This document shows positions 1 to 10,753 of a stretch of DNA of 64,000 nt, one piece after another. Below the pieces are notes generated by a model. The model had not been told where the DNA came from, made no database searches, and saw nothing but the letters and a program-made list of their open reading frames with translations. Each line of letters opens with the position of its first letter. Position 1 is the first letter of the stretch. Source of the stretch: Escherichia coli (GTDB lineage: Bacteria; Pseudomonadota; Gammaproteobacteria; Enterobacterales; Enterobacteriaceae); assembly GCF_003334305.1 (NCBI RefSeq), contig NZ_QOWS01000013.1. One strand, given 5' to 3'. Both the position numbers and the translations under genes were made by a program.

Positions 1-920
<920 letters not shown>

Positions 921-971
921 TAATTTCATTATTTTCAGAAGGATAATTAATCTTTCTACGTGCACGAACGG

Positions 972-1005
972 TCCCCTCGCTCCTCTGGGGTTAGGGTGAG
1001 GGGAA
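972..1005. repeat. Conserved hairpin element TCCCCTCGCTC-N-GGGTGAGGGGAA, copy 1 (between convergent tldD and aaeR)
   Basis: Arms TCCCCTC (972-978) and GAGGGGA (998-1004) are reverse complements; a near-identical element recurs at 18820-18851. Confidence 0.5.
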
Positions 1006-1047
1006 CCCGTTGGCACAGGTTTGTAGAACGTAACAGTACAATATGAA

Positions 1048-1977
1048 TTACTTCTCTTTCCCGCGCCCGTGCATCTCCTGAAACAATTTACCGACCTCAA
1101 CAAAATAATCCGTCAGCGAGTTGATCACGACCTGTACCTTCAGCGGCAGCTTATCTTTTTCGGTATATAACGCATAAACCGGGCGTGGATCTGACTGGTA
1201 ACGTGGTAGCAGGATCTCCAGCTCCCCGCGATTGATCTCGTTGATCACCCACATCAGCGGCACGTAGGCGATCCCAGCGCCTGCAGTCAGCCAGCGCACC
1301 AGCGTCATCGGATCATTAGTCACAAATCTCCCCTGCGGGATCAGGCGAGTCGAGATCCCTTCCGGTGCGATCAGTTCAAATTCATTGTCGGGCCGCACGC
1401 TGTATTCAAGCCATGAATGGCTACTTAAATCGGCGGGTTTTTCCGGTATGCCGTATTGTGTGAGATAGCTTTTTGCGGCGCACACCACCATTGGCATCGC
1501 GCCCAGACGGCGGGAAAACAGGCTGGAATCCTGCAACGCGCCGACGCGGATCACCACATCCAGACCGTCGGCAATCAGGTCGGGGGCAGGAATTCCGGTA
1601 ACCAGATTGACGCTCAAACCTGGGTATTCTTTCAGCATTTTTGCTGTCAGCCCGGCGAGAACATTTTGTGCCATAGTTGAAGAACAGCCAATGCGCAGCG
1701 TCCCGATGGGGGTGTTATTGAAGGCATACAGTTGCTCATGAACATCCTGCACTTCATGAAGCATACGACGGCAGCCCTGGTAGTAAATTCTACCGGCTTC
1801 GGTCAGGCCAATGCTGCGTGTGCTACGGTTTAACAGCTTTACCTGCAACTCATCTTCCAGTTTTGACACCGTCTGACTGATGGACGAAACGCTCATCTGT
1901 AGCTGTCTGGCGGCGGCGGTAAAAGAGCCAAATTCAACTACTTTGGCAAACACCGACATGCGTTTTAGTCGTTCCAT
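1048..1977 (-). CDS. aaeR: LysR-family transcriptional regulator AaeR
   Basis: 309-aa ORF with N-terminal HTH (LysR type); sequence and position (divergent from aaeXAB) match E. coli AaeR. Confidence 0.92.
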   Translation of the reverse strand: MERLKRMSVFAKVVEFGSFTAAARQLQMSVSSISQTVSKLEDELQVKLLNRSTRSIGLTEAGRIYYQGCRRMLHEVQDVHEQLYAFNNTPIGTLRIGCSSTMAQNVLAGLTAKMLKEYPGLSVNLVTGIPAPDLIADGLDVVIRVGALQDSSLFSRRLGAMPMVVCAAKSYLTQYGIPEKPADLSSHSWLEYSVRPDNEFELIAPEGISTRLIPQGRFVTNDPMTLVRWLTAGAGIAYVPLMWVINEINRGELEILLPRYQSDPRPVYALYTEKDKLPLKVQVVINSLTDYFVEVGKLFQEMHGRGKEK

Positions 1978-9385: not shown

Positions 9386-10753
9386 TTAACGCATCAGCAG
9401 ATAGATGCTTTCATTGCCGCGTACAATTTGCAGGGCGATGATGGCCGGTTTTGCCGCCAGCACTTTACGCATTTCAGCAATCGAGTTCACCCGATCGCGG
9501 TTGACGCCAATGATCACATCGTCTTTTTGCAAGCCAGCCTGAGCAGCTGGGCTTCCTTTGACAACTTCATCGATCTTAATACCTTTGCCGCCATCTTTTA
9601 GCTGACCATCGCTCAACGTTGCACCTTCCAGCGCTGGCGTGATCATTTCAGCGCTGGCCGACGAAGAGGTGCTGGTATCGAGCGTCACTTCTACTTCCAG
9701 TGGCTTGCCGTTACGCAGCAGGCCAAGCTTCACTTTCGTGCCCGGCTCGGTGGTCGCGATACGAGAGCGCAACTCAGCAAAGCTATTCAGCGGTTTGCCG
9801 TTGAGGCTGGTAATAATATCGCCCGCTTTGACGCCCGCTTTCGCTGAGCCAGAACCTGGCAACACTTCGCTGACAAACGCGCCACGCTGCACGTCAAGGT
9901 TGAAGGCTTTGGCGATATCGGCACTCATCTCGGTGCCTTTGATGCCTAACAAACCGCGTTTGATTTCACCAAAGTCGATAAGCTGCTGCGCCAGTGTTCG
10001 CGCCATATTACTGGGGATGGCAAATCCAATCCCGACGCTCCCGCCGCCAGGCGCAAGGATTGCAGTGTTGATGCCAATTAACTCACCGTTAAGGTTTAAC
10101 AGTGCACCGCCGGAGTTACCGCGGTTAATGGAAGCATCTGTCTGGATAAAGTTTTCCAGACCTTCAAGATTCAACCCGCTGCGTCCTAATGCGGAAACAA
10201 TGCCAGAGGTGGCGGTTTGCCCAAGGCCAAATGGGTTACCGACCGCTACGGCAAAATCACCGACGCGCAATTTATCGGAGTCGGCAATAGCGATTTGCGT
10301 TAATTTGCTCGGGTTTTGAATTTGTAACAGGGCGATATCGCTCTGGTCATCGCTACCAATCAGTTTTGCATCAAACTCGCGCCCATCATTGAGCTGAATA
10401 CTGATTTTCTGTGCCTGATTAATCACATGGTTGTTGGTCAGCACATAGCCTTTACTGGCGTTGATGATGACACCGGAACCTAAACCTTCGAAGGGTTGTG
10501 CAGGTTGATCCGGTAAATCATCACCAAAAAACTTTTTGAATTCTTCCGGGATTTTCTGTCCCTGACTGGCCGTTCCTTCCACCCGTACGCTCACCACTGC
10601 CGGAAGCACTTTTTCCAGCATTGGAGCCAGACTGGGGAGAGGGGCCTGATCGGCAACCTGGCCTGGAATCGACGCGACGGCCTGAAATGACGCCGAGAGA
10701 GTTAACCCGACACTTAACGCTAATGCACTCAACAGCTGGGTTTGTTTTTTCAT
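9386..10753 (-). CDS. degQ: Periplasmic serine endoprotease DegQ
   Basis: ORF-track ORF 9386..10795 trimmed to ATG 10753 (MKKQTQLL...), 455 aa; HtrA family with two PDZ domains; matches DegQ. Confidence 0.94.
   Translation of the reverse strand: MKKQTQLLSALALSVGLTLSASFQAVASIPGQVADQAPLPSLAPMLEKVLPAVVSVRVEGTASQGQKIPEEFKKFFGDDLPDQPAQPFEGLGSGVIINASKGYVLTNNHVINQAQKISIQLNDGREFDAKLIGSDDQSDIALLQIQNPSKLTQIAIADSDKLRVGDFAVAVGNPFGLGQTATSGIVSALGRSGLNLEGLENFIQTDASINRGNSGGALLNLNGELIGINTAILAPGGGSVGIGFAIPSNMARTLAQQLIDFGEIKRGLLGIKGTEMSADIAKAFNLDVQRGAFVSEVLPGSGSAKAGVKAGDIITSLNGKPLNSFAELRSRIATTEPGTKVKLGLLRNGKPLEVEVTLDTSTSSSASAEMITPALEGATLSDGQLKDGGKGIKIDEVVKGSPAAQAGLQKDDVIIGVNRDRVNSIAEMRKVLAAKPAIIALQIVRGNESIYLLMR

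Follow-up and report, generated by a model that had tools for sequence, protein, structure and literature searches.

BoxC is a small dispersed repeat of Escherichia coli that has been known since the 1990s. Earlier descriptions, under this name or as PIT (potential intrastrand triplex) elements, reportedly include those of Bergler in 1992, the surveys of Bachellier in the 1990s, and the work of Hoyne and Maher in 2000-2002. To our knowledge, no function has been established for the intact element, and we know of neither an associated RAYT transposase nor a candidate protein that binds it. REP/BIME repeats can act as mRNA 3' stabilisers. Holder et al. (2015) list 23 TM-ECO elements in MG1655, TM-ECO being the motif earlier named BoxC and PIT, with CCCTCGCCCCTCTGGGGAGAGGGTTAGGGTGAGGGG as the commonest form (PMC4666352, Table 1); Petrillo et al. 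include BoxC among the known E. coli stem-loop families, having found 22 copies against 32 known (PMC2267715). The intact element comprises three blocks, namely CCCTCGCCCC, a loop, GGGGAGAGGG, TTA or CCG, and GGGTGAGGGG, with ..GGTC on the left and GAAC.. on the right. Holder et al. also report raised local variability and no link to gene class, orientation, or operon position (PMC4666352).

Here we describe two similar hairpins in a 64-kb window (the whole stretch of E. coli chromosomal DNA that was analysed), one in the spacer between tldD and aaeR (copy 1) and one in the spacer between nanA and nanT (copy 2). It is quite probable that both are decayed copies of BoxC (PIT / TM-ECO), a dispersed intergenic E. 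coli repeat, and most likely neutral relics. The resemblance of the two sites is real, and the element itself is already known, not new.

The two sites share with BoxC the blocks CCCTCGCCCC and GGGTGAGGGG, the flanks GGTC and GAAC and, in copy 1, the type-A loop TTA. Their intergenic position is also that of BoxC, which often lies between convergent genes or in operons (pstA-pstB), and copy 1 occupies the locus of K-12 element no. 14. Degeneration of the motif from strain to strain and the collapse of inverted pairs to plain stem-loops are likewise features of the family (Holder et al., PMC4666352). The differences are that neither window copy has an intact middle purine block, and that copy 2 is outside the 23-element list and carries an extra CTCG in its left arm. 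REP/BIME repeats are also small GC-rich imperfect palindromes of intergenic regions and 3' UTRs, and they occupy the nanA-nanT spacer in Citrobacter and Yokenella, but they have another consensus; no GCCGGATGCGGCG-type sequence is present at either window site, and the REP consensus GCC(G/T)GATGCG(G/A)CG, with up to two mismatches, had no match at 950-1020 or 18810-18860. Like intrinsic terminators, the hairpins are GC-rich stem-loops just after a stop codon, but they have no U-tract, no K-12 3' end is mapped there, and termination downstream is Rho-dependent.

Two sites, probably of one repeat family

The pattern TCCCCTCGCTC-N-GGGTGAGGGGAA occurs on the + strand at 972-1005 and 18820-18851, without any other match in the 64-kb window, and in a window search that tolerated one mismatch each of its halves was confined to the same two sites. 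It had no match in 100 dinucleotide-preserving shuffles versus two in the window; the recurrence reported in the preliminary description is thus exact at both coordinates and not expected by chance. Both copies are intergenic, and copy 1 lies, as had been stated, between convergent genes, the 3' end of tldD facing aaeR (Table 1). Folded as + strand RNA, copy 1 gives a hairpin of -28.5 kcal/mol (z -3.05) and copy 2 one of -29.1 kcal/mol (z -5.8), and on the - strand both folds are weaker, an effect of the G.U pairs in the stems. At the gathering threshold, the Rfam hits in the window were three only, the greA leader, ArcZ, and a tRNA, with none at copy 1 or copy 2. Elsewhere, the window has a single further GGG[AT]GAGGG nonamer, GGGAGAGGG at 10635-10643, which lies inside a long - strand open reading frame with no partner blocks, and we attribute it to chance.

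Table 1. Coordinates of the two hairpins, their blocks, and the neighbouring genes in the window
Feature	Position	Strand	Remarks
tldD, 3' part	21..920	+	stop at 918-920
Copy 1, whole BoxC-derived element with family flanks (..GCAC..CGGTC, core, GAAC..GCAC)	958..1016	+	profile match and orthology to TM-ECO no. 14
Copy 1 block 1, pyrimidine, CCCCTCGCTCC	973..983	+	T at 981 is a lineage-specific C>T (8-allele alignment)
Copy 1 block 2 remnant, GGGG	987..990	+	6 nt (AGAGGG or TGAGGG) deleted relative to full element; GGG direct repeats bound the deletion
Copy 1 block 3, GGGTGAGGGG	994..1003	+	preceded by type-A loop TTA at 991-993; pairs with block 1 in this allele
aaeR	1048..1977	-	convergent with tldD
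nanA	17920..18813	+	
Copy 2, two-block probable BoxC remnant, 17-bp RNA hairpin	18815..18855	+	arms 18815-18831 and 18839-18855, loop 18832-18838
Copy 2 block 3, GGGTGAGGGG	18840..18849	+	preceded by CC(G), resembling type-B loop CCG
nanT	18922..20412	+	ATG at 18922; same operon and strand as nanA

The identity of the element was settled by comparison with the catalogued E. coli repeat families, a check that had been suggested, in which the match was BoxC = PIT = TM-ECO (PMC4666352, Table 1). We fetched 11 other MG1655 loci, which together hold 14 elements, and all the K-12 copies fetched lie between genes. In the same orientation, the type-A copies of MG1655 read ..GCAC..(C/A)GGTC-CCCTCGCCCC...GGGTGAGGG-GAAC/A.., and 15 K-12 copies agree well in their arms and immediate flanks. 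Part of the flanking identity noted earlier between the two sites is explained in this way: the T before CCCC, the GGGT, and the AA after GGGG are found at both because the type-A BoxC consensus carries them as parts of the element, and only the CGCTC on the left is coincidental. An nhmmer profile was built from 11 MG1655 type-A copies with the tldD locus left out. Against the window, it matched copy 1 at 958-1016 with E = 2e-12 and a 6-nt gap in block 2, while copy 2 was the second-best match, a marginal one with E = 0.029 (18840-18864) and E = 1.7 on the reverse strand.

Searched with 48 nt around copy 1, the 5,426 complete E. coli genomes had a median of 13 places each and up to 24; with a 61-nt query taken from a full-length allele, the median was 17 and the range 2-33. 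The proposal of a small dispersed element in place of two independent hairpins is borne out by these medians of 13-17 places per genome. The spread from 2 to 33 BoxC-like places also means that the size of the family differs greatly between E. coli strains, and few of these places are plasmid-borne (18 and 52 in the 48-nt and 61-nt searches, respectively). The preliminary description had further considered a shared protein or RNA recognition site, and no evidence points to one; the two sites are alike through descent from one repeat family and not through any recognition function in common.

A contig scan with CCCCTCGC-N(5-16)-GGGTGAGGGG returned at least 120 stretches, with one enteric name among the matches listed, and gives no count of E. 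coli remnants. Among the matches listed, the three-block motif CCCTCTCCCCTCGCGGGAGAGGG-NNN-GGGTGAGGGG recurs near-unchanged and often in multiple copies in unrelated phyla, its carriers including a Nitrospirales MAG (at least nine copies), Asaia bogorensis, Hydrogenophilus, Planctomycetia, and Deinococcus frigens (loci L017, L027-L035, L039-L041, L060-L062, L067, L087-L093, and L102-L130). Some of these groups of copies have their own conserved right flank, such as GCGnTTCAGGATnnG (Hansschlegelia, L017; L102; L125-L130). A wide distribution of the triplex motif was also described by Holder et al. (PMC4666352).

Length alleles and decay at tldD/aaeR

The MG1655 orthologue of copy 1 is TM-ECO no. 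14, an element of 36 nt at 3,390,494-3,390,529 in the same tldD/aaeR spacer. In the alignment, MG1655 reads CCCCTCGCCCCTTTGGGGTGAGGGTTAGGGTGAGGGG and the window CCCCTCGCTCCTCTGGGG------TTAGGGTGAGGGG, so that the window differs by the 6-nt gap and two substitutions within the element, with two more in the surrounding spacer. Copy 1 is the window's allele at this catalogued BoxC locus, minus 6 nt of the middle block and plus one C>T. Across eight E. coli strains, the element is 36 nt long in MG1655, O157:H7, and PK8277; 30 nt in the window, AR_0067, 98232, and N39; and 24 nt in AVS0051. In this series, GGG repeats flank the first 6-nt loss and AGGG repeats the second, and all three lengths still fold, with energies of -28 to -31 kcal/mol. 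A 48-mer identical to that of the window is present in 1,436 E. coli genomes and an allele 80-90% identical in about 2,700; in a 181-nt comparison, 187-nt full-length alleles made up most of the hits sampled from the lowest identity band (90-95%, 2,768 genomes).

Among the eight aligned alleles, CGCTCC is found only in the window and every other allele reads CGCCCC, including the other alleles shortened by 6 nt, so the left-flank identity CGCTC claimed earlier is not conserved. Since the T in copy 1 arose by a lineage-specific C>T, the CGCTC common to both copies is a coincidence; that of copy 2 came from a rearrangement and not from the point change seen in copy 1.

Neither copy retains the arrangement of one pyrimidine and two purine blocks of 9-10 nt with short loops, block 2 of copy 1 being reduced to GGGG and copy 2 having two blocks. 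With the middle block gone, neither can therefore form the three-strand fold proposed for BoxC, and only a Watson-Crick/G.U hairpin is left. Judged by their sequences, both are remnants of the motif that fall outside the PIT / TM-ECO structural class, the intrastrand triplex having been shown by Holder et al. for the intact motif only (PMC4666352). The deletions in both copies are likely to be products of slipped-strand mispairing within a structure-prone repeat, as their boundaries at G-rich direct repeats of 3-4 nt (GGG...GGG, AGGG...AGGG) suggest. The same type of degenerated TM-ECO was found in other strains by Holder et al., who also describe a 'palindrome effect', in which inner loss at inverted-pair sites leaves a stem-loop (PMC4666352).

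The nanA-nanT spacer

The left arm of copy 2 reads CCCCTCGCTCGCCCC, compared with CCCTCGCCCC in the consensus. A BLAST search with its 48-mer found about one place per E. coli genome; copy 2 is too diverged or too short to be linked to the family by BLAST, and the profile and synteny were therefore used. For the synteny sample, nanA-nanT loci were fetched via NanA homologues of other genera. At its two ends, marked by the nanA stop and by TTCATACCAAAGCG...GGGAGACTCA-ATG (the nanT start codon), the spacer is conserved, and the middle is variable. In Pseudocitrobacter faecalis, the middle of the homologous spacer contains two complete BoxC elements that form an inverted pair of type A and type B. 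Kluyvera cryocrescens has CCTCTCCCTGAAGGGAGAGGAGAAGGGGAAAT, a partly decayed BoxC that ends in the same GGGGAAAT junction as in E. coli. The Salmonella spacer is short, with no BoxC or other such repeat, whereas Citrobacter enshiensis and Yokenella contain REP-like sequence and Superficieibacter an unrelated GC-rich sequence. Metagenome variants of NanA at 94-95% identity (L135, L136) have the same E. coli-type spacer and give no outgroup information.

On the synteny above all, which says more than the weak sequence match, copy 2 is probably a BoxC remnant, and it would be an older one than copy 1, in which the two outer blocks, pyrimidine and purine, are all that is left. Otherwise, a hairpin may have arisen or an element been inserted independently, the spacer being prone to repeats; Pseudocitrobacter and Kluyvera could likewise have acquired their BoxC elements independently, at a site where REP-like repeats also settle in Citrobacter and Yokenella. 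No K-12 element is catalogued at nanA-nanT among the 23 of Holder et al. (PMC4666352, Table 1), and a literature search found no described nanA-nanT stem-loop. The hairpin is identical in four of the four E. coli-type sequences aligned, which says little either way because the entire spacer is at least 95% conserved (5,410 genomes).

Several other features of this region were observed. The middle of the spacer (18814-18880 in the window; L131-L134, L137, and L138) is a hot spot where several genera carry small repeats, and the ~55 nt upstream of nanT are conserved throughout. A second hairpin, GTGGGC-ATC-GCCCAC at 18892-18906, lies just upstream of the nanT Shine-Dalgarno sequence GGGAG and is kept in E. 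coli, Pseudocitrobacter, Kluyvera, and Superficieibacter. The Salmonella counterpart, ATGGGC-ACA-GCCCAT, shows a compensatory G:C to A:T change at the base of the stem, and the conservation of this hairpin may reflect a part in the translation or regulation of nanT. In E. coli strain 01G17CRGN001 (L009, NZ_CM148329.1, 549000-552043, corresponding to about 18780-19080 of the window), a deletion that removes the spacer with its hairpin fuses a truncated nanA to a truncated nanT, and both genes are annotated as pseudogenes.

Transcript ends, function, and meaning

The absence of a T-tract at copy 1, noted in the preliminary description, holds for both sites, and a scan for T-tracts and terminators found no terminator-like site at either hairpin, the tails being AACCCGTTGG and AAATAAACGC. 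Mapping of 3' ends, another suggested check, could be read from published K-12 data: the Term-seq table of Adams et al. (2021) contains no 3' end at either site, and Rho-dependent termination is located downstream of both (PMC7815308). One Rho-dependent region, 3,390,148(-), is ~435 nt past the tldD stop and antisense within aaeR (score 6.0, p = 5.5e-18); the other, 3,372,577(-), lies ~70 nt downstream of the hairpin, 3 nt short of the nanT start (score 2.1, p = 6e-5), and the mapping is coarse, with 800-nt windows that cannot be tied to a hairpin (PMC7815308). In window coordinates, these regions are at about 1349 and about 18919, the - strand of MG1655 corresponding to the + strand of the window. 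Across the nanA-nanT junction, K-12 coverage falls from 164 to 58, and with bicyclomycin from 205 to 152; without the drug, nanT coverage is ~1/3 of that of nanA (PMC7815308, supplementary file 2). The hairpins are not the terminators.

The default reading is that both copies are most likely neutral relics. If they had any role, the most plausible would be that of stable stem-loops in the tldD 3' UTR and the nanA-nanT spacer that bar trimming by 3'-exonucleases after Rho-dependent termination downstream. It is unlikely, in our estimate, that the stem-loops have been domesticated in this sense, being kept in mRNA as a 3'-exonuclease barrier or processing stop that stabilises tldD mRNA, and nanA relative to nanT in nanATEK with Rho-dependent attenuation just downstream. 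Such a role would agree with the stronger fold on the + strand, which is the sense of tldD and nanA/nanT and is due to the G.U pairs, with the folding of every tldD length allele, with the invariance of the nan hairpin in the sequences aligned, and with the coverage drop and its recovery by bicyclomycin around the Rho region at 3,372,577. However, no stable 3' end is recorded at either hairpin in the Term-seq table, and the Rho mapping, with its 800-nt windows, is too coarse to be linked to the hairpin. In K-12, BoxC copies are found pointing either way with respect to the adjacent genes, the one in pstA-pstB being antisense to its operon, which argues against a general RNA role. PIT elements had neither promoter nor terminator activity in the work of Maher's group, as far as Holder et al. 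summarise it, and within that account neither Holder nor Maher found an effect on expression (PMC4666352). Retention of a hairpin needs no selection, because three redundant G/C blocks leave a hairpin after almost any internal deletion. A bolder form of the idea is that two-block remnants are repeatedly retained because the collapse drops a harmful, instability-prone triplex and leaves a useful mRNA stem-loop, the apparently fixed nan hairpin and the Rho drop downstream together setting the NanA:NanT ratio; we regard this as distinctly unlikely.

That two unrelated GC-rich hairpins, or independent terminators, share their arms by chance is very improbable. Copy 2 taken by itself could suggest it, given its marginal profile match, its essentially single-copy 48-mer, and the coincidental CGCTC, but the joint pattern never arose in the shuffles, neither site has the T-tract of a terminator, and full BoxC elements occupy the nan site in a related genus, Pseudocitrobacter. 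For copy 1, the reading is already refuted by its profile match and its orthology to a catalogued BoxC element. A shared binding site for a protein, or a target for cleavage or recombination by a transposase analogous to REP and RAYT, is extremely improbable. The conserved arms and flanks of the K-12 copies and the near-identical three-block motifs in many phyla would fit a recognised sequence; however, Holder et al. found no association with mobile elements (PMC4666352), a third of the element is missing from the window copies, and the length of copy 1 varies between strains, unlike that of a constrained site.

The discovery value of these results is small, as the repeat family, its degenerate alleles, and its instability from strain to strain are all published. 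The resemblance of the two hairpins is now explained by common BoxC descent, and the nanA-nanT hairpin is a likely BoxC remnant to be added beyond the K-12 list of 23 elements. In annotation, such hairpins should be labelled BoxC remnants and not terminators. The series of 36, 30, and 24 nt at one locus, with each 6-nt loss at a G-rich microhomology, provides a compact natural illustration of how the element decays.
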